Position numbers and translations under genes: made by a program. DNA of 39,245 bases from a virus. The notes beneath the pieces are model-generated. The model saw only the letters and a list, made by a program, of their open reading frames with translations, made no database searches and was not told the DNA's origin. The stretch is taken from the IMG/VR virus record IMGVR_UViG_3300045988_032692; one strand, given 5' to 3'. Below are positions 1-39,245 of the stretch, in pieces (position 1 is the first letter of the stretch; every line of letters starts with the position of its first letter).

Positions 1-54
1 AGGGAGTAGTCGTCTAAAAAGCGAGCGAGAGTTCGAATCTCTCCTTCCGCGCCA
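1..54 (+). tRNA. 3' portion of a tRNA gene (class II, most like tRNA-Ser); the 5' half lies outside the window
   Basis: T arm GAGAG-TTCGAAT-CTCTC (27..43), acceptor 3' strand CTTCCGC (44..50), discriminator G, encoded CCA (52..54). About 20 nt of variable-arm-like sequence (TCGT/GCGA stem) lies upstream. The layout resembles Bacillus tRNA-Ser 3' halves as I recall them. The anticodon is not in the window. Confidence 0.6.
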
Positions 55-55
55 A
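1..55 (+). repeat. att core, left copy (55-bp direct repeat identical to 39191..39245)
   Basis: AGGGAGTAGTCGTCTAAAAAGCGAGCGAGAGTTCGAATCTCTCCTTCCGCGCCAA occurs at 1..55 and 39191..39245 with 0 mismatches. The identity could extend beyond the window edges. Confidence 0.9.
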
Positions 56-98
56 AGTACCCGAAAATAGCGTCTTTTCGCTGTTTTCGGGTACTTTC
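56..98. terminator. Bidirectional rho-independent terminator directly after the att core
   Basis: 16-bp stem GTACCCGAAAATAGCG (57..72) / CGCTGTTTTCGGGTAC (79..94) with one G-U pair. T-run on + strand (95..97), and TTTGG follows on the minus-strand read. It would terminate both the regenerated tRNA and the minus-strand late/cargo operon. Confidence 0.75.
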
Positions 99-209
99 TC
101 TATTTATTTGTTCGGGATGGCGCTAAATGTCGAAATATGAAAAATACATCTACGGACAGCCAAAAACTAAAAAATTGCAGTCTATAAGTTACTTTGTAAG
201 TAACACATT

Positions 210-536
210 TCAGACGTTCCGCACCCTCCGAAGCACTGAATCGTATGCACGGTGGTTGACAAGCGACAGGGTTTCCATAAGCTCATCAATGATCGGCCAG
301 ATTTGCGCCGGGTCTTTTCCTGCAATACTTCGCAAAAAATCGCTATCCCCATACTCGTTGATCGTTTCGGATGCGGGCGGCGCGGCGGAGTATCGGCGTT
401 CAACCGGCGGCTCCGCCTTGTGCCCCATGCGGTCTTGAATGGTGTAAAGATTTGCGAGTTTGGCATAGTTTGGATAACTGGATTCTTCATATTCCAGTCG
501 CGCAATTTCCTTGCGGATTTCAAGCGCATCCAGCAT
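210..536 (-). CDS. Hypothetical protein (108 aa), last gene of post-lysis cargo operon
   Basis: ORF track. RBS AAGGGGGG upstream of the ATG at 536. A 7-bp hairpin (188..204) follows the stop. No family recognised. Confidence 0.6.
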   Translation of the reverse strand: MLDALEIRKEIARLEYEESSYPNYAKLANLYTIQDRMGHKAEPPVERRYSAAPPASETINEYGDSDFLRSIAGKDPAQIWPIIDELMETLSLVNHRAYDSVLRRVRNV

Positions 537-549
537 GGGAGCGCCCCCC

Positions 550-927
550 TTATGCCCGGTCGATCTGCTCCATGCAGTGACGGATAGCGTCGCGGGTTGC
601 GTCGCTGTCCGCGTCGCGCATCATGTCCTCGAGCTGCTCACGCATCCGCTCGCGGGCGTCGGCACGACTATAACGCCCCAGAGAATCCCGGCGGCGTCCA
701 CGGTAGGAGCTTCCGCGATTATACGTCCCTCGGATGTTTGCATCCCAATCGGCGTCCCGGCTATAACCGGATTCGTCGAGCATTTCAATTTTGTCGATGT
801 TTTTGATCGTGTCGGTCAGCTTGTGGACGATCTCAAGATCGCCAGCGCCAAGCTCCGGCTTCCTTGCGATTTCCTCCAGCTCGTCACAGAGCGTCGCCCG
901 CAAGTCCTCCATTGCTCTCTTACTCAT
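550..927 (-). CDS. Hypothetical highly charged (Arg/Asp/Glu/Ser-rich) protein, about 125 aa
   Basis: ORF 550..957. Start moved to the Met at 927 because AAAGGAG lies 7 nt upstream. Helical N-terminus, RGRRRDSLGRYSR low-complexity centre. Confidence 0.6.
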   Translation of the reverse strand: MSKRAMEDLRATLCDELEEIARKPELGAGDLEIVHKLTDTIKNIDKIEMLDESGYSRDADWDANIRGTYNRGSSYRGRRRDSLGRYSRADARERMREQLEDMMRDADSDATRDAIRHCMEQIDRA

Positions 928-940
928 GTTCATGCTCCTT

Positions 941-1363
941 TCACGCCACGCGCTCAACGATCATGTTGCTGTTTGCAAAATTGATCGCCTGCGTGCTGGT
1001 ATTTTCTGCGGCAACCGTAAGGCAGCAGCCGCGCGGCACTTCTACAAATGCCGAGACGAAGATGTTGAAATAGTTCTCCACCGCCGCAGGCGTGACAATC
1101 GCTGTCGCGCTGGTGAGCGGTTCACCGTTGATCGCCAGCGCTGCGGAGATCGCTTCCACGGTGCCTCCGGTCGGAATGGCAATGTTCGCGCCAAAGGCCA
1201 CGCGGAACCGCGCCTTGCACTGGTTCGTAAGGCCGCGAAGCGTTACGATGCCCGCTCCGGCGCGATGCACGATACACCCACCTCTCGCGGCGGGCGTTTC
1301 CGTCAACGGCACATTCTGGCCTGCCGCTACGGTCACGATGTTGGAATTGGTATATTCGGCCAT
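941..1363 (-). CDS. Stand-alone BclA C-terminal-domain-like (C1q/TNF jelly-roll-like) protein, 140 aa, no collagen repeats
   Basis: Size, beta-rich pattern and C-terminal ...SNMIVERVA resemble the Bacillus BclA C-terminal domain ending ...IIIEKVA (from memory). RBS AGAGAGGG. Preceded by a hairpin terminator. Confidence 0.5.
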   Translation of the reverse strand: MAEYTNSNIVTVAAGQNVPLTETPAARGGCIVHRAGAGIVTLRGLTNQCKARFRVAFGANIAIPTGGTVEAISAALAINGEPLTSATAIVTPAAVENYFNIFVSAFVEVPRGCCLTVAAENTSTQAINFANSNMIVERVA

Positions 1364-1390
1364 AAAATCAACCCTCTCTTTGATAGATAT

Positions 1391-1419
1391 AAAATGCGGC
1401 GGAGCGATTGCCCCGCCGC
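1391..1419 (-). terminator. Intrinsic terminator/attenuator inside the cargo operon
   Basis: Stem GCGGCGGAGC (1396..1405) / GCCCCGCCGC (1410..1419) with loop GATT. On the minus strand it is followed by ATTTT (1391..1395). Confidence 0.55.
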
Positions 1420-1487
1420 TTCTGTGAGTATCGACACGGAGCCGATCATTTTCGTGAGGTCACGAAAAAGCTCAATTTGTGGATTTG

Positions 1488-2249
1488 TTAGGCGCAGGCA
1501 CCGCAGACATACTGCGAACCATTACACCCGGCGAACTGATACGGTGCGGGAACCGCAAACGACGGAACCGGACGCGGGTTGTAATAGGCGAACTGGCCGC
1601 TCATGTATGCCTTGAGTGCTTCACTCTGCGCAGACTGAGACGCCGCCAGCCGCAACCCCTGATTCTCGTTTTCGAGATCGCGCATCTTGCTCTGCGTCAG
1701 GAAGTCAAGAATGGCTCGGCTGTTGCTGTTCTGGTTGTCGATGATGTCCCGCGTGGCGTTCTGGACGGTGTTGCGCGTGTCGCACGCCTGCGAAGCCATG
1801 TCGTACCGCACCTGTGCGATTGCTTCCCGGTTCTCGCAGCAGCAGTTCTGAGACTGCATCTGCATCTGGAAAAGCTGCTGCATCAGCGCGGCTTGCTGGT
1901 TCGCGCGGGATAGCTCCGCCGTCTGGAATCCGCTGTTGACCGCCTGCGTGACGCCCGCAAATCCGTTCAGGACGCTGGTGTTCATCCCATAGAAGCCGTC
2001 GCACAGGCCGTTGTTGACGCCGTCAAGCTTGCGCTCAATATTGGCGAAATCGGATGCAAGGATGTATCCATCCGTCGCACCGCCGCCATTGTTGTTGCCC
2101 CAGCCATTGCCGCCCCAGCCGCAGAAGATCGCGAGGAACAGGATGATAAACCACCATCCGCCATCGCCGCCGAAGCCGCCCCAGCCGTTGCCGCCCATGC
2201 CAGTAGGTGCTACCGGCATAGTCATAGTCGTACCATCGGTAAGGCTCAT
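1488..2249 (-). CDS. Gly/Trp-rich membrane protein with Gln-rich coiled region, CCC motif and Cys-rich C-terminus (253 aa)
   Basis: ORF track; RBS CAAGGAG. N-terminus GMGGNGWGGFGGDGGWW, then TM segment FIILFLAIFCGW, then GGNGWGNNNGGG. Motif QNCCCENREAIAQVRYDMASQACDTRN. C-terminus CNGSQYVCGACA. Confidence 0.7.
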   Translation of the reverse strand: MSLTDGTTMTMPVAPTGMGGNGWGGFGGDGGWWFIILFLAIFCGWGGNGWGNNNGGGATDGYILASDFANIERKLDGVNNGLCDGFYGMNTSVLNGFAGVTQAVNSGFQTAELSRANQQAALMQQLFQMQMQSQNCCCENREAIAQVRYDMASQACDTRNTVQNATRDIIDNQNSNSRAILDFLTQSKMRDLENENQGLRLAASQSAQSEALKAYMSGQFAYYNPRPVPSFAVPAPYQFAGCNGSQYVCGACA

Positions 2250-2300
2250 TTTGTCGTACTCCTTGAAGAAAATATATTATCAACCGTGGCCACGGATTGA

Positions 2301-2528
2301 TTATTGCAAAAGACCCTGAAACTGCCGCGCAACGGCCTGAAGCTGGTTTAACTGCTGCTGCGTGAGCTTGCCGGATTGCATCATTTTTTCAACCTCGGCT
2401 TTCGGGTCGCCATTAAAGTTCGCCTTGAATTGCTGGAATTGCTGCATCATTCTCTGAAACTGCCCCATCTGGCCGGGCATTTGCGGCGCTCTGCCGCCGC
2501 CAAGCGCGTTAAACAGTGGATTCGGCAT
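2301..2528 (-). CDS. Gln-rich small protein (75 aa)
   Basis: ORF track; strong RBS AAGGAGGAA. 20-nt overlap with the upstream ORF. Confidence 0.6.
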   Translation of the reverse strand: MPNPLFNALGGGRAPQMPGQMGQFQRMMQQFQQFKANFNGDPKAEVEKMMQSGKLTQQQLNQLQAVARQFQGLLQ

Positions 2529-2967
2529 TGTGGTGTTCCTCCTTCTTGTTCTCCGCGCCAGCCGCCGCCAGCGCGTTCACACGCGCTTCCATCGCTTCAA
2601 ACTCCCTTCGGGTGACAAATTCCCCGCTGGCCGGGATGATCGGCTGTGCGGGCGTCCTCGCGCCCGTGCGCTCCGTGTAATCCAGAACCCGCATGGACGG
2701 AACGCCGGATGCGTCCACGCTCTTGATATAAATGCACGGGTTCTCGCTATCCCACAGAGGAACCGTGTTCCCCGCCGCGACGAGGTAGCTCTTTGCGCCC
2801 GCGTCACCCTGTACCCAAATCATGCTCTGGGCAGGCTGCGGCATTTGCGCCATAGGCTGGGGCGGCTGCTGCGGTTGATACTGTTGGCGAAGCTGCATGA
2901 GCTGGTCTTGCATCGGCGGCTGATAAAATGGTTGGTAGCTCATCGGCGGTTGGTACTGTCCATACAT
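2509..2967 (-). CDS. Protein with Gln/Pro-rich N-terminal low-complexity region, small beta domain and helical tail (144-152 aa)
   Basis: ORF track. An alternative start at 2943 forms an ATGA overlap with the upstream stop. Core motif IWVQGDAGAKSYLVAAGNTVPLWDSENPCIYIKSVDASG. Confidence 0.65.
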   Translation of the reverse strand: MYGQYQPPMSYQPFYQPPMQDQLMQLRQQYQPQQPPQPMAQMPQPAQSMIWVQGDAGAKSYLVAAGNTVPLWDSENPCIYIKSVDASGVPSMRVLDYTERTGARTPAQPIIPASGEFVTRREFEAMEARVNALAAAGAENKKEEHHNAESTV

Positions 2968-3359
2968 TCAGATTCGTTCCTTTCCCAAAAATAAAGCGGT
3001 GTTTGGCTCCCAGAGTTCCATGTGTCAAACCAATCTCCATCCCTGACGCAGACCACATGGGTTGCAAGCGCAAGAATGTATGTACCGATTGGATGGTCAC
3101 GCGCGAACTCCGCAACTGTGTATGTGTCCGGGTTGGAGCTTGGTACGCCATGCCGGACATAGCCAAGCTGGTTCAGGTACGCTCCCCAAACAGCGTTTGC
3201 GGAGGGCATATCGCCAACCTCAAACCCATGAAGCGCAAGCGCAACATATACCTCATCCCACGATTTCCCGGTCGCCTTGCAGATCGCCCGAACAGGGCAA
3301 TCCCCAACCTGACGCCGCGCGGGATTTGGATTGTAAAAAGAAAAACCCATACCGGACAC
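2940..3359 (-). CDS. Putative papain-like (Cys-His-Asp) peptidase-fold protein, 139 aa
   Basis: N-terminal GDCPVRAI (candidate nucleophile Cys), C-terminal ATHVVCVRDGDWFDTWN (candidate His and Asp). No signal peptide. The fold call is inference. Confidence 0.45.
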   Translation of the reverse strand: MSGMGFSFYNPNPARRQVGDCPVRAICKATGKSWDEVYVALALHGFEVGDMPSANAVWGAYLNQLGYVRHGVPSSNPDTYTVAEFARDHPIGTYILALATHVVCVRDGDWFDTWNSGSQTPLYFWERNESECMDSTNRR

Positions 3360-3435
3360 CTCTCAACGTGTCCAGTATGGGTTATTTTTCGGGTTTATGT
3401 GCCGCGCTTGTGCATCATTTTCGCCCGTTTCGAGT

Positions 3436-3684
3436 TTAACTATATAGTCGGCTAGATGTCTTTCGCATTCGGTCGAGAATTCCGGGGAGCCGCCGCTGCA
3501 CGGTGGCTCGCCCGAGATACAACTCCGATGCAACATCAATCTGCGGGCGCTTATCGACGTAATAGAGCTTTGCAATTCGCTCATTTTCCTGCCCGAGGTT
3601 TGCTTGGGAAATAACGTTCTCCATTTCTCCACGCATCAGGCCGGATAATTCAGGCGGTAGATTATACCGCGCTTGTGGAGACAT
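3436..3684 (-). CDS. Small sigma-70 region-4-like / ArpU-RinA-like HTH protein (82 aa)
   Basis: ENERIAKLYYVDKRPQIDVASELYLGRATVQRRL fits the region-4 HTH pattern. The start is 4 nt after the endolysin stop. Confidence 0.55.
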   Translation of the reverse strand: MSPQARYNLPPELSGLMRGEMENVISQANLGQENERIAKLYYVDKRPQIDVASELYLGRATVQRRLPGILDRMRKTSSRLYS

Positions 3685-3688
3685 AGGA

Positions 3689-4369
3689 TCACCCCTTCTT
3701 GCTCAAAATGGGAATGTTTCCCTTGTTCGACACTTCGAGATCCAGCGCCTTTGCAATATCGCGAATTTTAATATAATTCGTGCCGTCCTTCAAAATGCGT
3801 TCGACCTCGATCTCCTTGCCGTCTATGATCATCTTCGATTTCGTGATCACCTCATCCACCTCCTCCAAGAGCTTCTTGAATGCTTCCCACTTCGTTTCGT
3901 CAATCAGCGGAAGCGGACACAGCTTCATCGAAATGTCATAGTGCCGGATTGCGGCCTGCACGTTCGGCAGCTGCTTCAGCAACATCTGATAGAGCCGCGC
4001 AGCGTTGCGCATCGTTGCCTCCGGGATGTAATACTTGCCGGAAGCGTCTGTGTGGCTCACCATCTCGATAGATACCGTGTTGTAGTTGTTGTACACCTTG
4101 CCGAATTTGCCGCTCCTGCCGTCGCCCACGGCCCACGCAACCGCATCCAGCGGCACACACTGGTAAACGGTATCGCCCTCGTCTACCACGAAATGTGCCG
4201 AAGCAGCGCGTCCCTCGCTGCCGTTGGCAAAGTATCGGGCATTGCCAAGCGCTGTTGCGTGCAGGCCGGTGTTCGCCGTGTAGTGAAACACGATTGCCTG
4301 GATAGCCGAGAGCGGACGCCGCCCGCCCACTCTCGTTGCCCGGATGGTATCGTTAATTTTCAGTGCCAT
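3689..4369 (-). CDS. Endolysin: N-acetylmuramoyl-L-alanine amidase (Amidase_2/PGRP) with C-terminal wall-binding-type domain
   Basis: Motifs IVFHYTAN, SAHFVVD, AWAVGDG, NTVSIEM. C-terminal IDGKEIEVERILKDGTNYIKIRDIAKAL resembles copper-amine-oxidase-N-like repeats. ATG at 4369 preferred over the GTG at 4378. Confidence 0.9.
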   Translation of the reverse strand: MALKINDTIRATRVGGRRPLSAIQAIVFHYTANTGLHATALGNARYFANGSEGRAASAHFVVDEGDTVYQCVPLDAVAWAVGDGRSGKFGKVYNNYNTVSIEMVSHTDASGKYYIPEATMRNAARLYQMLLKQLPNVQAAIRHYDISMKLCPLPLIDETKWEAFKKLLEEVDEVITKSKMIIDGKEIEVERILKDGTNYIKIRDIAKALDLEVSNKGNIPILSKKG

Positions 4370-4577
4370 CGCCGTCACCCTTCGCGTCCATCGCGTCCTG
4401 TGCCTTCTGCGACTGCGTGCCGAAATAGAACGTGATGACCATCAGGAAGATCGTCAAGAAGTCTTTCCCTGTGATATCACCCCGCAGCGCCAGCACCGTG
4501 AACACCACCGTCAGCAGCAGCGTCACCAGCGACTTCACGCTCAGCAGATTCGACAGCCGTTTCATAATTTTGTCCAT
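4353..4577 (-). CDS. Holin (74 aa, two TM segments, charged C-terminus)
   Basis: Start at the Met at 4577 with RBS GGGAG. TM segments SLVTLLLTVVFTVLAL and FLTIFLMVITFYF. Sits immediately upstream of the endolysin. Confidence 0.75.
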   Translation of the reverse strand: MDKIMKRLSNLLSVKSLVTLLLTVVFTVLALRGDITGKDFLTIFLMVITFYFGTQSQKAQDAMDAKGDGDGTEN

Positions 4578-4578
4578 G

Positions 4579-4830
4579 TTATGTACTCCCTTCGTCGTCC
4601 GATTTTTTTGCAAATACTCTCTTCGCAAGGAGCATCAGCAGCTCCCCGCCAAACGCCGCTACGGCGAAGGTCAGGATGTCGGAAAGGTCTATGTCCCTGT
4701 CCATCACCAGTGCTGCGGTTTTGACCATCGCCGCCCAGAGCAGGACGCCAAACAGCACCCAGATGCAGAAATACACCAGCTGCCGTGCCATCTTCCCCTT
4801 CGTCAGGCGGCTTTTCCGGATGCGCCTCAT
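4579..4830 (-). CDS. Second holin-like membrane protein (83 aa, two TM)
   Basis: ATGA overlap with the XhlA-like stop. Basic N-terminus, two hydrophobic helices, acidic tail. Confidence 0.6.
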   Translation of the reverse strand: MRRIRKSRLTKGKMARQLVYFCIWVLFGVLLWAAMVKTAALVMDRDIDLSDILTFAVAAFGGELLMLLAKRVFAKKSDDEGST

Positions 4831-5123
4831 ACAATCCCCGCATGAGCCAGCGCAAAGCCGACCAGCGCCCCCACAATGGCTGTCACAGTCGCCTTGACTA
4901 GCGCTTCCCATTTCCCGCCCGGAATGGCCTTGAGGCTCTTCACGTCGTCCTTGATCTCGCTGATATTGGCCTCGATCGTCTCCTGCTTCGTCGCCAGCAC
5001 CTCTACCGAGGTCGCCAGCTGATGCAGGGCTTTGTTGTCTGCCTCCAAATCGTCAATGCGGTGCGTGTTGCTCTTGGATCGCTGGTCGATCTCCACGATC
5101 TTTGCCTGAATTCCATCATCCAT
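4827..5123 (-). CDS. xhlA: XhlA-family lysis-associated membrane protein
   Basis: N-terminal coiled coil (RIDDLEADNKALHQL...), then W-containing linker and a C-terminal TM. PBSX-like xhlA-holin-amidase order. Confidence 0.7.
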   Translation of the reverse strand: MDDGIQAKIVEIDQRSKSNTHRIDDLEADNKALHQLATSVEVLATKQETIEANISEIKDDVKSLKAIPGGKWEALVKATVTAIVGALVGFALAHAGIV

Positions 5124-5134
5124 ATTCTTTCTCC

Positions 5135-5383
5135 TTATTTCGGTTTTCCAACAACGTACTCAACAATGTAAGTTCCGGATACACGGCAGATTTTAACTCG
5201 ATCTCCCGCACTGAATGTAACGGAAGTGTTGCATTTATAGTGCTTTGCGGTTGCCTCTGTCTGCCCGTCAAAGATCAGCGACAGTCCATCGGTATACTTT
5301 GCGCCAACGGTCGCAAGCATAAATTCAGGTTGTGGCTTCTGCGCCGTTTCGTCTGTATCAAAAAAACTCGTCACGCCAATCAT
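5135..5383 (-). CDS. Small tail-module protein (82 aa), function unknown
   Basis: Start at 5383 gives an ATGA overlap with the upstream tail-protein stop. It is the last structural ORF before the lysis genes. Confidence 0.55.
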   Translation of the reverse strand: MIGVTSFFDTDETAQKPQPEFMLATVGAKYTDGLSLIFDGQTEATAKHYKCNTSVTFSAGDRVKICRVSGTYIVEYVVGKPK

Positions 5384-6429: not shown

Positions 6430-8419
6430 TCTCCTCCTCGTACTCGATTTGTGTCACCATGAACGAATACACACTCTTGTATTGGTTGACCTCTCCCGAA
6501 ACCTCATTCAGATACCCGATGCAGCCTCCCGACGGATGCAGTTTCAAACAAACCAGATGTCCGATCATGCCCTCGAACTTCTCGGCACTGTCTCTGTTTA
6601 AGAATACGACATTCCCGTCATAGGTCGCAGTTTTCGCTTTACTGCGCTCCGCAACGGGATATGTGTACCCGGAAAGTCTTACCTCTGCAATCGAGCGGCT
6701 AATACTTCTAGTAACCGGCTGATTGGTCAGGCCGCTGTACTTCATGGTCAGCCATTCTCCGGCGTCCATATCATACAAGACGTTGTATTCCGGCGTGACC
6801 GAGACAGAGACTTCGGCAGAAACGCCGTAATAATCGTTGTCGGAATAGCAGCCGCGCACCTGATATGTGCAGGCGCCAATCGCCATGTTATCCACATATC
6901 CGGGATCTTCCGCCTTTGCAATCGGTGTCCCGTCCCGGTATACAATGTAAAAATCGTAGTTGCCAGAATCCACCCATGCAAGCGTTACTGCGTTTTCGGT
7001 ACTTGCCGTCAGCGTGATCGCGCCGCCCGGTACGTTTGTGACCGGGAGCGCCGCCGTGCCCCACGGCGACCAGAAGCCGTATTCGTTTTGCACACGGACG
7101 CGCACCGTGTAGCTGCCATCGGCCAGATAAAACGGTGCCTTCCACGTCTTCCCGGTTCCGAAGCGCGTGCCGGAGGCATAGACGCCGTCAATCTCGACTT
7201 GGTAGGCTTGCTGCTCCGTTGTCTGCCATGAAACGGACGGTCTAGGCGTGGCCGATTGGACCAAGATCACAGGAGCATCCGGTGATCCGACACAAATAAA
7301 CTCTGCGGCAGAACTCCAATCACTTGCGACACCGTCGCCGTTGTAAGTGCGCACTCGCCAGAAATGCGTACCCGTTTCGATACTGCCTGCTGCTGCGGTG
7401 TAATATGTATCCGCGCCAGTCACCGTAGCCAGCGCCGTCCAGACCGTTCCATTGTCCGAAATCTGCAATTCGGCTTTCGTTTGCGGCGTACCGGTTGTGA
7501 TAACGTGAGCCCAGTGGAAAACAGCATCCGCATTTTTATCGACAATGTCATTGACAGGGCTAATTGGAACGGCCGTTGATTTTTCATCTTGCAGGGTGAT
7601 GGTCAGCCATGCGTCCGCAGTGCTGGTTTGGCCATTATTGCTGGTGATTTTAGGACGAATCTGAACTTGCGATTTTCCTGAAAATGTACCAGCTGGGATT
7701 ACAAGTTGCTGGGCAGCGCCGTTGGCCATTTGTATTTCCTGCTCAGAAGTAGATCCTACATCACGCCAAATGACGGAAATACCTGTCTGGTAAACTTCTG
7801 CATAGCAAAGTCCAGATTGTGTCGTCGGAACAGATAATTCGATGTCGGCCCCGGCTGTTTTAGATATGGTTTTCCCGCCGAAATTTGACGCCCATGTATT
7901 TGCATACATTTTCACAATATCAGAATCATCAATTGTCAGGGTCAGTTTCGGCTTATATGCGCCAGATGGTGTGTAGACAGAAAATTTCCCAAATCCAGAG
8001 CGGAATTCCACGCCATTTATAAATACAATTCGATGGTAGATGTACGTTGGGTTTTTCACCAATGCCAGTGACACATTGCCAGCCACAGTAAAATGGGGGG
8101 AAGTAGCTGTTCCCGTCCCGCGACTTGGCATATTGAAAAAAGTTACGGTATTGACATCATAGCCTTTATCCATAACTCCGCCCTGAAATGTGCAATACCC
8201 AGTATATGACGGAATTTCCGTTATAGAAGCTATATACAGTTCCGCAGAGATATAAGAAATTCTGTTATACTTCCACGAATAATTCCCATTCGTAGAAAAT
8301 TTACAAAAAAGCCTGTTTCCCCCAGAGAGAAGCACACTTGAGCTTGTATGGTCATTTTTGGTCGTGTCGTTTTCGTTGCAGAATGCAAACACATCCATTT
8401 GCAAGGTTTGTGTGCTCAT
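6413..8419 (-). CDS. Large tail protein in the Dit position (668 aa): AT-rich N-terminal module, three FN3-like modules, Sipho_tail-like C-terminus
   Basis: First gene after the TMP; RBS GGGAGGTG. FN3-like signatures (…WRVRTYNGDGVASDWS…, …VRVQNEYGFWSPWG…, …YIVYRDG…YQVRGCY…). C-terminal 130 aa resembles distal-tail-protein families. Confidence 0.7.
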   Translation of the reverse strand: MSTQTLQMDVFAFCNENDTTKNDHTSSSVLLSGGNRLFCKFSTNGNYSWKYNRISYISAELYIASITEIPSYTGYCTFQGGVMDKGYDVNTVTFFNMPSRGTGTATSPHFTVAGNVSLALVKNPTYIYHRIVFINGVEFRSGFGKFSVYTPSGAYKPKLTLTIDDSDIVKMYANTWASNFGGKTISKTAGADIELSVPTTQSGLCYAEVYQTGISVIWRDVGSTSEQEIQMANGAAQQLVIPAGTFSGKSQVQIRPKITSNNGQTSTADAWLTITLQDEKSTAVPISPVNDIVDKNADAVFHWAHVITTGTPQTKAELQISDNGTVWTALATVTGADTYYTAAAGSIETGTHFWRVRTYNGDGVASDWSSAAEFICVGSPDAPVILVQSATPRPSVSWQTTEQQAYQVEIDGVYASGTRFGTGKTWKAPFYLADGSYTVRVRVQNEYGFWSPWGTAALPVTNVPGGAITLTASTENAVTLAWVDSGNYDFYIVYRDGTPIAKAEDPGYVDNMAIGACTYQVRGCYSDNDYYGVSAEVSVSVTPEYNVLYDMDAGEWLTMKYSGLTNQPVTRSISRSIAEVRLSGYTYPVAERSKAKTATYDGNVVFLNRDSAEKFEGMIGHLVCLKLHPSGGCIGYLNEVSGEVNQYKSVYSFMVTQIEYEEEIDIDS

Positions 8420-8473
8420 CCTGTCGCACCTCCCATCCGAACCACTCTGCGGCGCTCCTGTTTATAACCCATA

Positions 8474-9775
8474 TTAGCCGCCTCCCATTCTGCTGGTTCT
8501 GCGCTGATTTTGCGCGATGTTTACAACATCGTTAAATTGCTGCACGTTTGACGAATCAATGTTGATGTTGTAATTATTCGTCGTGGAATTGCTCGCCGAG
8601 TAAGGCACATACTTCCCGGTTCCAGCCTCAATATAACCACCCGTTCCAGTCCATCCGCCTGCGGATTCACTATAAGACGTGCTCTTGAGCGTATCTCCAT
8701 AGACAACCTTCTGATAGGTAGATAACTGGCCCTTCGAAACATTCATACCGAGTGCCGTTCCGATCCGGTTGAAATCCCATGTGAAAATACCGGCTACGAC
8801 GTTCGCAGCATCAGCAATTAACGCGAGCACTTTTGCGACAGGATCAAGAGCAACCTTCAATGCCGGGAGAAAAGTCACGATCAGATCTGCGAGCGGGTCG
8901 AGCAATCCAACTGCAATTTCGAGGATCGATCCGATTGCCTCAATGAGGCCAGAATCGTCAAGGGCCTTTGAGACTTTATCGATAAACTGCATGCCTGCAT
9001 CCATAACCGTGATGAATGTTGGGGTCAGTTTATCGAGGAAATTGTTTTTCAGTTCTTGGAACTTCTCGCCGAGTTTCGCGGTCGATTCCTGCAGCTTCAC
9101 CTGATTTTCGCGTGATTTGATTACCTGCTCGTTATTTTTGTAGAAAGAATCCGCCGCATCGGAATATGTACCGGACAGGGTATTCATGATCAAGCTGTTC
9201 CGCTCCGCCTCGCCGGAGCAATTCGCAAGTGATTCATTGAAGTCATCCTCGGAAATACCGGCCCAGTTCAACGCATCCGCCAGAACGCCCGTTACCTGTC
9301 CAACCTTTGCCGTCTCGTTTGCGGCCTCAATAAGTCCGTTGATGGGCAGCGAATCACCGAACGTGCCGTTTACACCAGCGGCGATATTCGTCCACGTTGC
9401 GAAATCTTCTTGGTTGCGTGCCAGTTTCGCCATGAGCTGCGCTGTTTCTGTGGCGGTATCCGTGTCACCTAGGATTTTGTAAAGGCCAGTGTAAGCCTCC
9501 TGTGCCGTCTCAGCACTATATCCGGCGGTTTCAAACGCAGTATTTAGTTTGCCCTGCGCCACGATGTACTCGCTAGTGCTCTCAATCACTTTCCCGATTG
9601 CATCAACAACCTTCGTGATTGCTGTTTGCGCTACCGCAAAACTTTTCGCAGTCATTTTTGACGCTTTCTCGACGTTGTTCTTCCATGATGTTGTTTTCTT
9701 CTTCGCGGAATCCATTCCATCATCCACGCCGGATGAATCGGCTGTGATCTTCACCACAATATCCAGTAAATTCAT
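8474..9775 (-). CDS. Tail tape measure protein (433 aa)
   Basis: Position after the G/GT chaperones. Long alpha-helical Ala/Leu/Lys-rich sequence. ATGA overlap with the chaperone T-frame stop. Confidence 0.85.
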   Translation of the reverse strand: MNLLDIVVKITADSSGVDDGMDSAKKKTTSWKNNVEKASKMTAKSFAVAQTAITKVVDAIGKVIESTSEYIVAQGKLNTAFETAGYSAETAQEAYTGLYKILGDTDTATETAQLMAKLARNQEDFATWTNIAAGVNGTFGDSLPINGLIEAANETAKVGQVTGVLADALNWAGISEDDFNESLANCSGEAERNSLIMNTLSGTYSDAADSFYKNNEQVIKSRENQVKLQESTAKLGEKFQELKNNFLDKLTPTFITVMDAGMQFIDKVSKALDDSGLIEAIGSILEIAVGLLDPLADLIVTFLPALKVALDPVAKVLALIADAANVVAGIFTWDFNRIGTALGMNVSKGQLSTYQKVVYGDTLKSTSYSESAGGWTGTGGYIEAGTGKYVPYSASNSTTNNYNINIDSSNVQQFNDVVNIAQNQRRTSRMGGG

Positions 9776-10071
9776 TCTTCCACCACCAATCCACACCGCC
9801 GCACAATATCAGCTGTAATTTCCTCGCAAGAGCGCGTGTCTTCTTTCTTCGGCCGCAATATTTCATCAAGATCCGACTGCATATACCGTCCGCCCACAAG
9901 TTTTGCAGTGTTCTCTGTTAAAACTCTGGCACAGCGCGACATATAATCATCAAACAACCACTTTTCCCTCCGCTGCCGAATCAAAACGGGCAGGAGCCGA
10001 ATGAGTGCGGGCGCTGAAATTTTCGGCGCATCCAGAAGGGAGAGTGTTACTCTTTCCCCTCCGATACGCAC
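9772..10071 (-). CDS. Tail assembly chaperone, T extension (expressed as a G-T fusion by -1 frameshift)
   Basis: This ORF is in the -1 frame relative to 10047..10409 and is open from the slippery site onward. It has no RBS of its own. Confidence 0.7.
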   Translation of the reverse strand: MRIGGERVTLSLLDAPKISAPALIRLLPVLIRQRREKWLFDDYMSRCARVLTENTAKLVGGRYMQSDLDEILRPKKEDTRSCEEITADIVRRCGLVVEE

Positions 10072-10409
10072 GATGAGAAAAAATCAATGAGTTCCTTGTC
10101 CTGCGCGATCTCCCGGATTTGCCGCAGCGTCTCCACGATCTTCTGCTCCCGGATGTCATCGACATTTTTTTCGTTCAAAACTGCAAGGATGCCGAACACG
10201 TCTTCTCTATGGTTTTTCAGAAGCATCGGCACCCACTGGCTGATGCGATTTGCCGCCATTGCATATTTCTCTGCAACGGTTTTCGCTTCCTTTGTGTTGA
10301 GTTTCAGGGATGTGATGACATCCTCGTCGCTCGTGATATTGAGCAGGAAAACGGAAATCTCGCACAGCACATCCGCCGCGCGATCCGTACTCAGTTCAGA
10401 AAGTTTCAT
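10047..10409 (-). CDS. Tail assembly chaperone G (120 aa)
   Basis: Lies between the major tail protein and the TMP. Acidic helical protein that ends shortly after the slippery heptamer. Confidence 0.8.
   Translation of the reverse strand: MKLSELSTDRAADVLCEISVFLLNITSDEDVITSLKLNTKEAKTVAEKYAMAANRISQWVPMLLKNHREDVFGILAVLNEKNVDDIREQKIVETLRQIREIAQDKELIDFFSSCVSEGKE
10077..10083 (-). other. Programmed -1 ribosomal frameshift slippery heptamer T_TTT_TTC
   Basis: The minus-strand zero frame reads GAT TTT TTC (D F F). A shift by -1 enters the frame of ORF 9772..10071 (checked by coordinate modulo 3). Confidence 0.7.
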
Positions 10410-16138: not shown

Positions 16139-17515
16139 TTACACCCCCACGATATAGCTTGCATAGGTTGACCAGTTTGTAGCTGCTTTCCATGTATCCA
16201 CAAGTGCCGCTGGAACACGGATTTGACAGTCTGCGGCGATTTCTTGGAAAGCAGTGGTGCTTGAAAGGGCCGGTACTGACGTGTGATTGCTGAAATCATA
16301 AAAAGCAATACCGCCACAATAGTAGAACGCATAAGTTTTAATGCTTGTTACCCCATTTGGAATTGTAATCGACGCAAGGGATTCGCAATTAGCGAACGCG
16401 GAACTTTTAATGGTTGTGACTCCATTTGGAATTGTAATCGATGCAAGGGAGACGCAATCATCGAACGCATAATTTCCAATGTCTGTTACTCCATCAGGAA
16501 TTGTAATCGATTCAAGGGAATAGCAATAGTAGAACGTCTGACGTCCGATACTTGTTACTCCATCAGGAATTGTAATCGACGCAAGAGACCTACAATTGTA
16601 AAACGCAGAACCTCCAATGCTTGTTACCCCATTTGGAATTGTAATCGATGCAAGGGAGCTGCACTCGCTGAACGCACTATCTCCGATACTTGTTACACCA
16701 TCAGGAATTGTAATTGATGCAAGGGGACAGCAATAGTAGAACGCAGAAATTTCAATGCTTGTTACACCGCTTGGAATTGTAATCGATGCAAGGGAACGGC
16801 AATTGCGAAACGCCTGATTGCCAATACCTGTTATACCGTTTCCAAGTTCGATTTTCTGTACACTGTTTTGGTAAACGGAATTACGAGTGTCGGAACCAGA
16901 TGAATACCGAAGAATTGAACTATACGATTCATCTTCAGAGTCGCTATTCAAGCCCATCGTTCCATCAACCGTCAGCTTGATCACATACTCGCCCGGTGCG
17001 GCATAGGCGTGATTTGGTGTCCATTTTGAAATTGTTGTGCTTGTACCTGTTAGCGTATCGGGTGTGGTTCCATCACCCCAATCAACCGTAACTGTGCCAT
17101 TCGGGCAAACACCAAGCATTGGAGATGTACGCCCTTCTTCCAGCCGGATATAGACTCTGGTCTTGCCATCATCCGTGATGTACATAGCGCCGACATTCAT
17201 CTTACGATTTGTGGTCTTAAGGTCAGCAAGCGACCAGTTCCAGCCCTGACAGATAAGCCCCTCGTGCGATGGATAATCTGGTAGTGCTGTCTTTGTTGCC
17301 AACTCTTCCAGTGTCCAAGACGTGACAATTGTGCCATCATAGTCATAAAATGTAATGTCGCCTGGTGCGCCTGGTGTGGTGCCGCCAGTCTGAATATTCC
17401 CAATCGCTGTAACAAATCCGTCCGGGTAGACCAGTGGATCAGATGTGCCGCCCTTTTCGCGGATCGCATCTGCTACCTTTTTGAGGTCTGTTTCATTGGT
17501 CAGGTATTCAGCCAT
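16139..17515 (-). CDS. BspA-type leucine-rich-repeat (LRR_5) protein with PKD-like domain, no signal peptide (458 aa)
   Basis: Eight 23-aa repeats SLASITIPxGVTSIGxxAFxxCx. PKD-like TVDWGDGTTPD...HAYAAPGEYVIKLTV. Fibre-type N-terminus LKKVADAIREKGGTS. Confidence 0.9.
   Translation of the reverse strand: MAEYLTNETDLKKVADAIREKGGTSDPLVYPDGFVTAIGNIQTGGTTPGAPGDITFYDYDGTIVTSWTLEELATKTALPDYPSHEGLICQGWNWSLADLKTTNRKMNVGAMYITDDGKTRVYIRLEEGRTSPMLGVCPNGTVTVDWGDGTTPDTLTGTSTTISKWTPNHAYAAPGEYVIKLTVDGTMGLNSDSEDESYSSILRYSSGSDTRNSVYQNSVQKIELGNGITGIGNQAFRNCRSLASITIPSGVTSIEISAFYYCCPLASITIPDGVTSIGDSAFSECSSLASITIPNGVTSIGGSAFYNCRSLASITIPDGVTSIGRQTFYYCYSLESITIPDGVTDIGNYAFDDCVSLASITIPNGVTTIKSSAFANCESLASITIPNGVTSIKTYAFYYCGGIAFYDFSNHTSVPALSSTTAFQEIAADCQIRVPAALVDTWKAATNWSTYASYIVGV
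16316..16795 (-). repeat. About seven tandem 69-bp coding repeats (LRR units)
   Basis: The core GGAATTGTAATCGAYGCAAGGG recurs every 69 nt (near 16352, 16421, 16497, 16566, 16634, 16704, 16773). In frame, one LRR unit per repeat. Confidence 0.85.
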
Positions 17516-37603: not shown

Positions 37604-38002
37604 ATGGATTTTGAGAAGCTAATTGACAGATGTATGCGCACGATTGATGACAGAAATCTAACAAATCGAGATGTTGCGCGGCTTGCAGATATTTCCGAAG
37701 CTACCGTGTCGAGGGTGCTGGCGACCAGAGGGAGAAATGCGTCAATGTCAACGATCATCGCCATTTGTGACGGATTGGGGATTGAGGAGGAAACCATCCA
37801 GTACGACATTTCACCAAATGATGTGACGTCGCTGGAACACGTTTACTTGGAACGCATCGCGGATTTGAAAATTGCAATCGAACAGAAAGATCGGTGGATA
37901 CGGCGGGTGTTCATAATCTGTCTGTCGCTGATTGTATTCATTGTCATCGTACTGGCCGTTGATTTGCTTATCCCGACGGTCGGATGGTTTCGGGGGTGGT
38001 AG
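37604..38002 (+). CDS. Membrane-anchored XRE-type HTH protein (132 aa)
   Basis: HTH LTNRDVARLADISEATVSRVL, coiled linker, C-terminal TM VFIICLSLIVFIVIVLAVDLLI. Upstream direct repeats AAATATCT(CT)GCAA at 37518..37529 and 37545..37558. Confidence 0.75.
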   Translation: MDFEKLIDRCMRTIDDRNLTNRDVARLADISEATVSRVLATRGRNASMSTIIAICDGLGIEEETIQYDISPNDVTSLEHVYLERIADLKIAIEQKDRWIRRVFIICLSLIVFIVIVLAVDLLIPTVGWFRGW

Positions 38003-39138
38003 TCATAGATTGTATGAAATGCAAAAAGGAGATACCAGAGGGCGCGTCCTATTGCCCGTGGTGCGGAAAGAAACAGGTGCAGGGGCACCGTGGGAAATCG
38101 CGTGGAAATGGGCAGGGGTACGCCTATCAGCGGGGAAAAACATGGACGGCCCGCTGGACAGTCGCCTGCTACCTTGATGAAAACGAAAAGATGCACCAGA
38201 AAGTAAAAACGAAGGGCGGCTTCGCATCCAAGCGTGCCGCCCTACAATACGCCGCAAATCCACCGGAGAAAGAAAAATGCTCTCCAACGGTGCGGGAATA
38301 TTACAAAACCTATCTGCGTGGGGATTATCAATCGCTGTCATCCAACCGCCAGATCGCCGCAGACGCAGCATTTGAACGGTTAAAAGAGATTGCCGACTGT
38401 GAGATCGACGCGCTAACTATTCGGCAGCTGCAGGACGTCGTAGACCGCAACGCGAGCACATACTATACACGACGTGATATGAAAACGGTGCTGTCACACT
38501 GCTACAACCTTGCAATCGCAGAAAAACAAACCACTGTGAACCTCTCAAAATATATCAAACTGCCAATGCTCGAGGAGAAAACACCGGAGCCGTTCACGGA
38601 CGATGAAGTTCTGAAGCTATGGAAAACATATCCGCAGGATCATTTTATTGGGTTCATCCTCACGATGATCTACACAGGCATGATGCCAGGAGAGCTTCAA
38701 AGTCTCAAAAAGGATATGATTGACTTCGAGAAAAATGAGATCGTCGGCGGCGGTATTAAAACGCAAAAGCGAAAAGATACGCCTATGGTATTCCCGGACT
38801 TCCTCGCGCCCGTCCTGAAGGAACTATGCGAGGAAAGCAACTCGCGCGTTGGGAAGGTTTGCTGCATCAACAAGGACACTTTCTATGCGCGGTACTATGA
38901 ATGTCTCGAGCTTGCGGGTGTCCGGCGGCTCACTCCGTATTCGTGCAGACACACCACCGCAACCGCACTGGCCTCGAAAAATATTGATCCATTCACTATC
39001 AAGGAGGTCATGCGGCACAGCAAAATCACCACGACGCAGAAGTATGTTCATCCAAATATGCGAGGCATGGTCGATGCGGTCAACCAAATTCCATCTTCTG
39101 ATGTTCAATCAGCGCCAGACCCGAAAGTAACTCCGTAA
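37984..39138 (+). CDS. int: Tyrosine recombinase/integrase with N-terminal zinc ribbon
   Basis: CKKEIPEGASYCPWCG ribbon. Catalytic-domain landmarks CRHTTAT, MRHSKITTTQKYVH (Tyr nucleophile). Alternative start at 38014. Ends 52 nt before the right att copy. Confidence 0.9.
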   Translation: MVSGVVVIDCMKCKKEIPEGASYCPWCGKKQVQGHRGKSRGNGQGYAYQRGKTWTARWTVACYLDENEKMHQKVKTKGGFASKRAALQYAANPPEKEKCSPTVREYYKTYLRGDYQSLSSNRQIAADAAFERLKEIADCEIDALTIRQLQDVVDRNASTYYTRRDMKTVLSHCYNLAIAEKQTTVNLSKYIKLPMLEEKTPEPFTDDEVLKLWKTYPQDHFIGFILTMIYTGMMPGELQSLKKDMIDFEKNEIVGGGIKTQKRKDTPMVFPDFLAPVLKELCEESNSRVGKVCCINKDTFYARYYECLELAGVRRLTPYSCRHTTATALASKNIDPFTIKEVMRHSKITTTQKYVHPNMRGMVDAVNQIPSSDVQSAPDPKVTP

Positions 39139-39190: not shown

Positions 39191-39245
39191 AGGGAGTAGT
39201 CGTCTAAAAAGCGAGCGAGAGTTCGAATCTCTCCTTCCGCGCCAA
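39191..39245 (+). repeat. att core, right copy (displaced tRNA 3' fragment)
   Basis: Identical to 1..55. The sequence upstream (39139..39190) contains no tRNA 5' half (no GCGGAAG acceptor strand), so this copy is the remnant. Confidence 0.9.

Follow-up and report, generated by a model that had tools for sequence, protein, structure and literature searches.

An eight-gene cassette beside the lysis genes of a prophage

We analysed a 39,245-nucleotide stretch of viral DNA (IMG/VR record IMGVR_UViG_3300045988_032692; "the window" hereafter means this whole stretch), for which a reading made from the sequence alone had proposed that the eight genes at positions 210 to 3684 are a cargo operon, possibly for remodelling the cell or spore surface or for a post-lysis matrix, placed after the lysis genes and next to the attachment (att) site. 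The eight genes, g1 to g8, form a cassette that is widespread in phages infecting Clostridia of the gut and rumen. Its behaviour is that of a late module of the lytic cycle which is bound to the host clade, and not that of prophage cargo or of a spore-surface system. The genes and the features that flank them are listed here, with lengths in amino acids (aa).

g1, 3436..3684, minus strand: 82 aa, basic, resembling sigma-70 region 4 and extracytoplasmic function (ECF) sigma region 4
g2, 2940..3350, minus strand: 136 aa, predicted papain-like thiol enzyme; the open reading frame (ORF) extends to 3359, with the likely ATG at 3350
g3, 2509..2967, minus strand: 152 aa, phrog_21718
g4, 2301..2528, minus strand: 75 aa, basic, phrog_22984
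g5, 1488..2249, minus strand: 253 aa, with a hydrophobic segment that is a probable membrane anchor
g6, 941..1363, minus strand: 140 aa, stand-alone jelly roll of the BclA-C/C1q/TNF-like kind
g7, 550..927, minus strand: about 125 aa, phrog_28802; the ORF extends to 957, with the likely ATG at 927
g8, 210..536, minus strand: 108 aa, acidic, helical
Lysis block, 3689..5123, minus strand: amidase, two small membrane proteins and an XhlA-like protein with a coiled coil and a transmembrane segment
Cassette-end hairpin, 54..97, minus strand: 19-bp stem, -26.3 kcal/mol, z = -6.3; terminates the transcription unit
att core, 1..55, no strand: perfect direct repeat of 55 nt, with a copy at 39191-39245 (100% identity)

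All eight ORFs lie co-oriented on the minus strand between the amidase gene and the att repeat, tightly packed and at the positions that had been claimed for them, and g1 does start 4 nt past the amidase (endolysin) stop codon. The "ATGA coupling" previously ascribed to g3 is not what the junctions look like: g2 and g3 overlap by 28 nt and g3 and g4 by 20 nt, and gaps of 13 nt separate g6 from g7 and g7 from g8. Nonsynonymous polymorphism (pN) is far below synonymous polymorphism (pS) for every member, and the ratio of nonsynonymous to synonymous substitution (dN/dS), calculated against three diverged loci, is 0.09-0.39; the purifying selection on g1-g8 implies that all eight are real genes.

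The window is one complete prophage with att sites at its ends, so that the cassette is att-proximal here. The att repeat resembles the terminal, 3' part of a tRNA gene, with the T-arm GAGAGTTCGAATCTCTC and the acceptor stem and end; as no more than this part is present, ARAGORN finds no full tRNA. An integrase is encoded at 37984-39138. In the neighbouring block, previously described as XhlA, two holins and an amidase, the amidase (3689-4378) is confirmed as Pfam Amidase_2 (E = 2.9e-21), and the XhlA-like protein (4827-5123) matches the XhlA profile only below threshold. A search of window positions 1-5300 against Rfam returned no family.

Distribution and gene order

Relatives of the cassette were collected in three scans of IMG/VR, from which about 240 stretches (the loci referred to below by L numbers) were fetched in all, and across these the order of the genes is kept. 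The first scan confirmed relatives of g6 on at least 575 stretches; the second, seeded with g5 of the Butyrivibrio phage Ceridwen, added 448 loci, mostly from the rumen and with the g1-to-g8 order kept; and the third added 71 further confirmed loci. Of the 80 loci fetched from the first set, 75 have enough upstream DNA, and every one of these has g2-g8 in one and the same order, all on a single strand. The expectation that the genes travel together is thus borne out in the first set as well as in the rumen set. Across the same 80 loci the amidase and holins beside the cassette are usually unrelated. Searching a set of 5.8 billion proteins, we obtained about 8000 clusters each for g5 and g6 at 90% identity; none of them has a name or a Pfam domain.

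Two phages with the whole cassette are Dulem virus 33, whose genome is complete, and the cultured Butyrivibrio phage Ceridwen, which infects Butyrivibrio fibrisolvens DSM 3071, a non-spore-former. The whole cassette is also carried by a prophage in Vescimonas fastidiosa MM35, a cultured member of the Oscillospiraceae and the sole find of a plasmid search; g3-g8 are annotated there, with an unannotated gap in the gene table where g1 and g2 lie. For Vescimonas, the type species has been described as not forming spores (PMC11334427). Where genome contigs carry host names, these are mainly Oscillospiraceae. The cassette is confined to Clostridia phages of gut and rumen and is carried by well over a thousand of them, and our literature search found no published description of it.

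In the most divergent genomes the g5-g6 pair is what is kept (48/72 loci), g6 almost always occurring with g5. These two genes are the constant core of the cassette, accompanied by g3, g4, g7 and a protease-type gene, either g2 or a gene for a protein with an HExxH motif.

Conservation, position and recoding

When the window phage is compared with Ceridwen, identity is 33-55% for the cassette proteins, on the same level as for the proteins of the portal, capsid, connector and tail tube (28-49%), while no match is found for the lysis genes, the tail-tip genes and most of the early genes. Morons, by comparison, are not conserved at core-gene level. Ceridwen has no annotated integrase and has been observed in the lytic cycle only.

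The position of the cassette varies. In Dulem virus 35 it is flanked by a MuF/gp7-like minor head protein on one side and by the scaffold and capsid genes on the other, accompanied by an XhlA-like protein and a small transmembrane protein and with the endolysin 15 kb away, and the same placement in the head cluster is found in at least 11 IMG/VR loci. In L126 the cassette lies upstream of lysin and holin, and in L140 and Ceridwen early genes come after it. Everywhere it is co-oriented with late genes and adjoins them. A fixed post-lysis site at the att junction, as in the sequence-only reading, is not supported: the cassette moves as a unit among late-region sites, which may follow the lysis genes, precede them or fall within the cluster of head genes.

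Further evidence comes from contigs in which TAG is read as glutamine (L200, L202, L203, L227 and L235; 100-160 kb, GC about 0.3). In L203 and L227 every cassette gene (g3-like, g4-like, g5, g6 and g7-like) carries in-frame TAG, at positions where relatives have Gln, so that all of these proteins would be truncated if read by the host code. In these recoded phages the cassette comes directly after tail and baseplate genes, which contain in-frame TAG too; about half of the replication and nucleotide-metabolism genes on the opposite strand have none. Suppressed stops have been reported mainly in late genes (PMC10607447). We detected no g1, g2 or g8 in the recoded phages; after the cassette, beside g7, stands a gene for a 107-110-aa HExxH (ImmA/SprT-like) protein, possibly a non-orthologous replacement of the g2 protease.

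Taken together, conservation at the level of head genes, presence in the integrase-less Ceridwen, placement in head clusters and late-type in-frame TAGs speak against the description of the genes as moron-like or lysogenic-conversion cargo. Conservation at this level might suggest a part of the particle, and the distribution of the capsid lineage speaks to that. The capsid protein belongs to a lineage common to 121 phage records (about 38-47% identity), most of them phages of Streptococcus, Staphylococcus, Enterococcus and Lactobacillus, and no phage of these four genera with this capsid lineage appears among the matches of g5, g3 or g6. This capsid type therefore assembles without the cassette, and a structural role essential to it is unlikely, as far as sequence comparison can tell. 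Distal tail genes beside the cassette vary freely (8/67 loci). The cassette follows host class (gut and rumen Clostridia), not particle architecture.

The proteins of the cassette

None of g1-g8 gives a significant match in Pfam, NCBIfam or PADLOC (in PADLOC none at E <= 0.1), g2-g7 fall in PHROGs families of unknown function, and sequence searches of the PDB (single g1, g2, g3, g5 and g6; profiles of g5 and g8) return noise only. By these searches seven of the eight families lack membership of any curated family, and the earlier statement that none can be assigned to a described virion, lysis, defence or toxin family stands after comparison with Pfam, PHROGs, NCBIfam and PADLOC. Folds are recognisable in three proteins only, g1, g2 and g6, for which the calls made from sequence (sigma-region-4-like, papain-like, BclA-C-terminal-domain-like) are upheld at profile or fold level. 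No signal peptide is seen in any of the eight when the sequences are read by eye. The remarks on composition also hold, namely Gln and Pro in g3, Gln in g4, Gly and Trp with a CCC motif and a Cys-rich tail in g5, and charge in g7.

The profile matches of g1 (PF04545, E = 0.06; phrog_36, E = 1.7e-4; TIGR02937, E = 3.8e-4) are all below threshold, TIGR02937 scoring 20 bits against a cut-off of 42.9, and they span the last 50 or so profile positions. Sigma region 2 is missing from g1 (82 aa; analogues 65-100 aa). Consisting of region 4 only, g1 is therefore not a sigma factor.

In g2, Cys18, His98 and Asp109 are invariant in 46 sequences, and in a model with a predicted local distance difference test (pLDDT) score of 89.7 a helix spanning residues 18-27 begins at Cys18; the order Cys, His, Asp with the Cys at a helix N-terminus is that of the papain clan. 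The best fold match is Josephin-2 (6pgv; probability 0.92, E = 0.035, TM-score 0.49), none reaching E <= 1e-3, and other weak matches are papain-like deubiquitinases (DUBs), including the herpesvirus tegument DUB, and the foot-and-mouth disease virus protease Lpro. On these weak fold matches g2 is predicted to be a minimal papain-like Cys-His-Asp enzyme. Assignment to CHAP/NlpC-P60 or to Tgl found no profile or fold support. Homologues of g2 at 29-42% identity also occur alone, without the cassette, in Geobacillus phage GBK2 (L097), Bacillus phage Tsamsa (L098) and Lak megaphages. In GBK2 and Tsamsa they lie among small unannotated genes in what looks like an early region, and in some Tsamsa-like records the homologue is annotated as "putative peptidase".

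The g3 protein (12% Q, 11% P) has a disordered, Tyr/Gln/Pro-rich N-terminus, a small beta-rich conserved domain with the motif W.QGE.GAKSYLV...LWDSE...Y.KS.DASG.PS...LDYTER, and a C-terminal helix; a relation to GerQ was considered and had no profile or fold support. The g4 protein is 23% Gln and carries the N-terminal motif M.NPLFN.LGGG. In g5 (13% G, with the segment WWFIILFLAIFCGW) a conserved MTMPV.P start is followed by a hydrophobic segment between Gly/Trp-rich runs; next come a long helical stretch, rich in N and Q, in which a CCC motif is invariant, and a C-terminus that is first Pro-rich and then Cys-rich. An exhaustive hidden Markov model (HMM) search with the g5 profile gave 2071 clusters at 50% identity (E <= 1e-3); the best 150 of these are all stand-alone proteins of at most 333 aa, among which no informative domain fusion was seen.

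The predicted model of g6 (pLDDT 69) shows the ten strands of a TNF-like jelly roll. Its matches in a Foldseek search of the PDB are 9h38, the F-BclA C-terminal domain (CTD) (E = 1.9e-6, TM-score 0.70), as well as BclA 1wck, 3tyj and ExsFA/BxpB; the four together span E = 2e-6 to 1e-4 and TM-scores of 0.6-0.7. In BFVD the matches include entries called "BclA protein", the nearest being stand-alone proteins of 130-145 aa from uncultured phages. The Pfam scan found no match of the window g6 to PF18573 (BclA_C), and two divergent variants stay under its cut-off of 38 bits, with 24.4 bits for the one in L167 and 19.1 for the one in L169. All 140 aa are jelly roll, with neither an exosporium leader nor collagen-like GXX repeats, and Cys30, Cys49, Cys113 and Cys114 are invariant. 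With 72-97% identity, compared with 25-60% for g8, g6 is the best-conserved protein of the cassette; a receptor-binding role, for which the most variable and not the most conserved member would be expected, is disfavoured.

The g7 protein (15% R, 14% D) has helical ends around a disordered middle rich in R, G, Y, S and D (RGRRRDSLGRYSR). In the divergent, AT-rich L167 a DUF7841 protein occupies the g7 position (9685-10143; Pfam E = 7e-13), and in L169 a glycosyltransferase-like gene follows the cassette. The most variable member, g8, has the motif GDSDFL...W.VMDELMDTL.V.N.RVYDSVMRKL and is absent from the head-embedded and the recoded variants.

Candidate regulatory elements

Three non-coding elements lie within the cassette.

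Element upstream of g2, 3344..3414, minus strand: tandem GCAC boxes, 16-bp hairpin and U-run; z = -4.65
g4-g5 GC palindrome or hairpin, CCGTGGCCACGG, 2280..2300, minus strand: position kept in both large clades
g5-g6 intergenic element, 1364..1487, minus strand: three consecutive hairpins; z = -5.4

The GCAC boxes (TGCACAAGCGCGGCAC, 3399-3414) are one helical turn apart upstream of g2, and the hairpin (3344-3383) holds the g2 Shine-Dalgarno sequence in its loop and the g2 AUG in its 3' arm. A strict pattern finds a box pair no more than 260 nt from g2 in 55 of the 157 loci, compared with about 1.4 expected. The form ATGCACAA-N4-GGCACAT accompanies the window type of g1 (11/15 loci), CGGCACAATGTTGGCACTT a second type (25/34 loci) and TTGCACGAAA..TGCMC the Ceridwen type (23/66 loci), so that, as far as these pattern counts go, the box variant is seen to co-vary with g1 type. 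The second box often doubles as the 5' arm of a hairpin that shows covariation and has a T-run behind it, and in the rumen clade the loop has a conserved TTCATT exactly 17 nt past TTGCAC. From the co-variation we infer that g1 would bind the boxes, which are -35-like, and would control a combined terminator and promoter; g2-g8 would thus be "very late" genes.

The g5-g6 element ends in an intrinsic terminator with a U-run (1396-1419), the internal hairpin terminator noted from the sequence earlier. Compensatory changes are seen in its middle hairpin, after which comes a conserved TACTGA (L069, L095, L025, L065 and others). The element is specific to the Oscillospiraceae-type clade, has no family in Rfam, and is missing from the rumen clade, where the gap between g5 and g6 is about 12 nt. 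The g4-g5 hairpin folds weakly in the window (z = -0.74, not significant alone).

Insertions, companion genes and other observations

The junctions g1|g2, g4|g5 and g6|g7 are insertion hot spots for HNH endonuclease genes, opposite-strand genes and a small optional ORF. HNH endonuclease genes lie at g4|g5 or g6|g7 (L001 10662-11213, L096 8103-8897, L105 9350-9970); two opposite-strand genes, one with a helix-turn-helix, lie between g1 and g2 in L034 (4983-5803); and phage MT835551 (95% identical) has about 1.6 kb extra at that junction (compare L002, around 8330-10240). Many loci, though not the window, have an optional ninth gene of 50-68 aa between g1 and g2, with the motif RLIAAG...W(Y/F)..QGDD..LE.YV (L095 6849-7001, L016 5908-6114, L001 12267-12419, L096 5463-5669).

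In the rumen and head-embedded clades a protein of 64-97 aa with a single transmembrane segment and the motif IPFIVHE..M.R.ER..KRL is encoded directly before g1, often overlapping it (42/62 rumen loci; L096 5048-5242, L105 6401-6628, L112 5969-6235, L181 7092-7373), and in Dulem virus 35 an XhlA-like protein moves along with it. Since these proteins travel with g1, the cassette may own membrane proteins in some clades.

In L087 (8336-9818), a 120-kb contig of an Oscillospiraceae metagenome-assembled genome, a prophage remnant consists of a truncated g5 with g6 and g7 amid host metabolic genes. Elsewhere in the window, in the head-gene region, an ORF at 16139-17515 (458 aa) contains seven tandem 69-nt units (16236-16902), which encode 23-aa repeats of 60-75% identity.

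Proposed mechanism and alternative explanations

The reading that we favour, tentatively and at well under an even chance, is that the cassette is self-regulated and makes a protein assembly directed at the host envelope very late in infection. In this scheme g1, made at the end of the late or lysis operon, would bind the GCAC boxes and turn on g2-g8, whose products, lacking signal peptides, would accumulate inside the cell. The g5 protein would enter the membrane through its Gly/Trp-flanked hydrophobic segment and bear a long, Cys-containing helical stalk, which g6, as a BclA/C1q-like trimer and the constant partner of g5, would join. The Gln/Pro-rich g3, Gln-rich g4, Arg/Gly/Tyr-rich g7 and g8 would be assembly partners or substrates, which g2, as a papain- or transglutaminase-like thiol enzyme, would process or cross-link; the HExxH protein may take its place in recoded phages, and a protease-type gene does go with the cassette in one form or the other. 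The target of the assembly would be the envelope or membrane of the host as it dies, at lysis or right afterwards, with egress, or the masking of debris and vesicles that trap progeny, as candidate roles.

Put more specifically, and as a rather doubtful proposition, a factor made of sigma region 4 only would trigger a two-part, membrane-anchored, BclA/TNF-like spike or cross-linked coat, built from g5 and g6 with low-complexity partners and a thiol enzyme (protease or transglutaminase); its site would be the cell as it dies, the resulting debris or vesicles, or released particles, and phages of gut and rumen Clostridia specifically would need it for egress or progeny survival.

Several points weigh against such an assembly and its switch. 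The hydrophobic segment of g5 has only about 14 residues and is uncharged, leaving insertion and topology uncertain; the g6 model is of moderate quality and the g2 fold matches are weak (pLDDT 69 and a best TM-score of 0.49, respectively); the cassette is next to lysis genes often, not always; and an envelope-directed function is a conclusion drawn from host restriction and composition only. As to the switch, the strict box pattern covers just 55 of 157 loci, five of the eight g1 types have no matching boxes, and binding by g1 is not the sole reading of the boxes, the spacing of which also resembles that of sigma-54 -24/-12 promoters. A check of this last likeness found no gene for an enhancer-binding protein in the vicinity, and two clades have TG in place of the -24 GG.

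Among the alternatives, it is unlikely but conceivable that the cassette supplies accessory parts of the virion, with g6 as a trimeric decoration of head or tail or as a fibre tip, g5 and the disordered proteins packaged and ejected into the membrane of the next host, and g2 as a maturation protease. Placement between the minor head protein and the scaffold and capsid genes in one clade, and straight after tail and baseplate genes in the recoded phages, fits such a set, as do the lack of signal peptides, the late context, TAG recoding, head-gene-level conservation and the fact that C1q/BclA-like domains cap the fibres of many viruses. The phages of Streptococcus, Staphylococcus, Enterococcus and Lactobacillus, with capsids about 38-44% identical, nevertheless do without it; the neighbouring distal tail genes vary freely (8/67 loci); a regulator and terminators belong to the cassette itself, as do membrane proteins in some clades; and g6 shows much stronger conservation than is usual for a receptor-binding head.

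We regard as distinctly unlikely a set of lysis-released effectors following the logic of Shiga toxin, PaLoc or UviAB, in which leaderless late proteins freed by holin and endolysin act on bacteria, phages or the animal host. The frequent adjacency of holin and lysin genes, the coupling of g1 to a lysin or small transmembrane protein, the missing signal peptides, the restriction to clostridial hosts and a g6 fold typical of ligand or lectin modules agree with it; but no toxin, immunity or killing-enzyme domain is recognisable with Pfam, NCBIfam or PADLOC, g6 is strongly conserved and not diversifying, g1 has no sigma region 2, which TcdR/UviA-type sigma factors possess, and the cassette may be distant from lysis genes.

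A role in counter-defence or host take-over, with g2 as a deubiquitinase-like isopeptidase directed at ubiquitin-like or CBASS-type (cyclic-oligonucleotide-based antiphage signalling) defences and the other proteins as inhibitors or decoys, seems very improbable: the best fold matches of g2 are deubiquitinases, and its lone homologues lie in apparent early regions of Tsamsa-like phages, GBK2 and Lak megaphages, yet the cassette itself is in the late and not the early region and has late-type recoding, known anti-defence loci do not look like eight syntenic genes with low-complexity products of structural appearance, and no PADLOC-related signal was found.

Least probable by our estimate, and only a slight chance, is the lysogenic-conversion cargo of the sequence-only reading, with g1 likened to GerE, g2 to YabG or Tgl, g3 to GerQ, g6 to BclA or ExsF and g7 to CotG: the att-proximal position in the window and many prophages, the coat- or exosporium-like composition and g6 fold, the cassette's own terminators and possible promoter, and a partial sigma-E-like match upstream of g2 (ACATAAA-N14-CATACTGG, seen by eye in one clade; other clades differ) recall such a system, but of the two cultured host genera, Butyrivibrio does not form spores and Vescimonas is described as non-spore-forming for its type species, Ceridwen carries the cassette with no annotated integrase and was observed only in the lytic cycle, conservation is core-like, the in-frame TAGs of recoded phages would truncate every cassette protein under the host code, the sole prophage remnant found has a truncated g5, and profiles of coat families in Pfam and NCBIfam are unmatched.

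Few viruses of the human gut and the rumen are as abundant, or as poorly understood, as the phages of Oscillospiraceae and Lachnospiraceae. Core-like conservation within one host class implies that the need which the cassette meets is probably particular to these phages and not shared by the model phages of Bacilli and Proteobacteria. The cassette offers a candidate compact switch (a protein of sigma region 4 only, with tandem -35-like boxes in a terminator hairpin), a candidate family of minimal papain-like enzymes and a candidate free-standing BclA/C1q-like trimer, and culturable carriers are at hand in Ceridwen on B. fibrisolvens DSM 3071 and the V. fastidiosa MM35 prophage.

Comparison with known systems

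The closest structural likeness is to the BclA and F-BclA CTDs and to ExsFA/BxpB of the Bacillus exosporium, which share the fold of g6; like them, g6 has no signal peptide and has Cys-rich partners. It differs in having neither a collagen-like stalk nor an exosporium-targeting N-terminus, in falling below the Pfam threshold, and in its late lytic context in phages whose hosts are known, or have been reported, to be non-sporulating. F-ENA fibres are made of DUF4183 subunits and are unrelated to the cassette.

Phage and giant-virus fibres with C1q/BclA heads resemble the cassette in the g6 fold, the late context and the head-cluster clade; g6, however, is unfused, and the cassette is missing from many phages with the same capsid and has its own regulator. 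With TcdR/TcdE of the C. difficile PaLoc, UviA/UviB/BCN5 of C. perfringens and the Shiga toxin genes embedded among late genes, the cassette shares a sigma-related regulator, lysis-type membrane proteins, leaderless proteins and probable phage-late expression, but g1 is region 4 only, and the cassette contains no toxin domain, does not always stand by holin or lysin genes, and is core-like.

Like the spanins Rz/Rz1 and mycobacteriophage LysB, the cassette usually adjoins lysis genes and belongs to one host clade, and g5 has the outline of an i-spanin, with a membrane segment near the N-terminus, an extended helical domain and Cys residues that are conserved. It differs from spanins in having no lipoprotein partner, no sequence or profile similarity, and seven to eight genes instead of one or two. 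The Clostridia hosts have, as far as known, a monoderm-type envelope; with such hosts and no lipobox protein among the cassette translations, membership of g5 in the spanins was rejected.

The predicted g2 enzyme shares with papain-like DUBs and transglutaminase-like enzymes the order Cys...His...Asp and a Cys at a helix N-terminus, and differs from them in its small size (about 125-136 aa), its lack of a Pfam or NCBIfam family and its best TM-score of 0.49. The cassette is new as a system, in that no described system combines these parts, and it could still prove to be an unusual accessory of lysis or of the virion.

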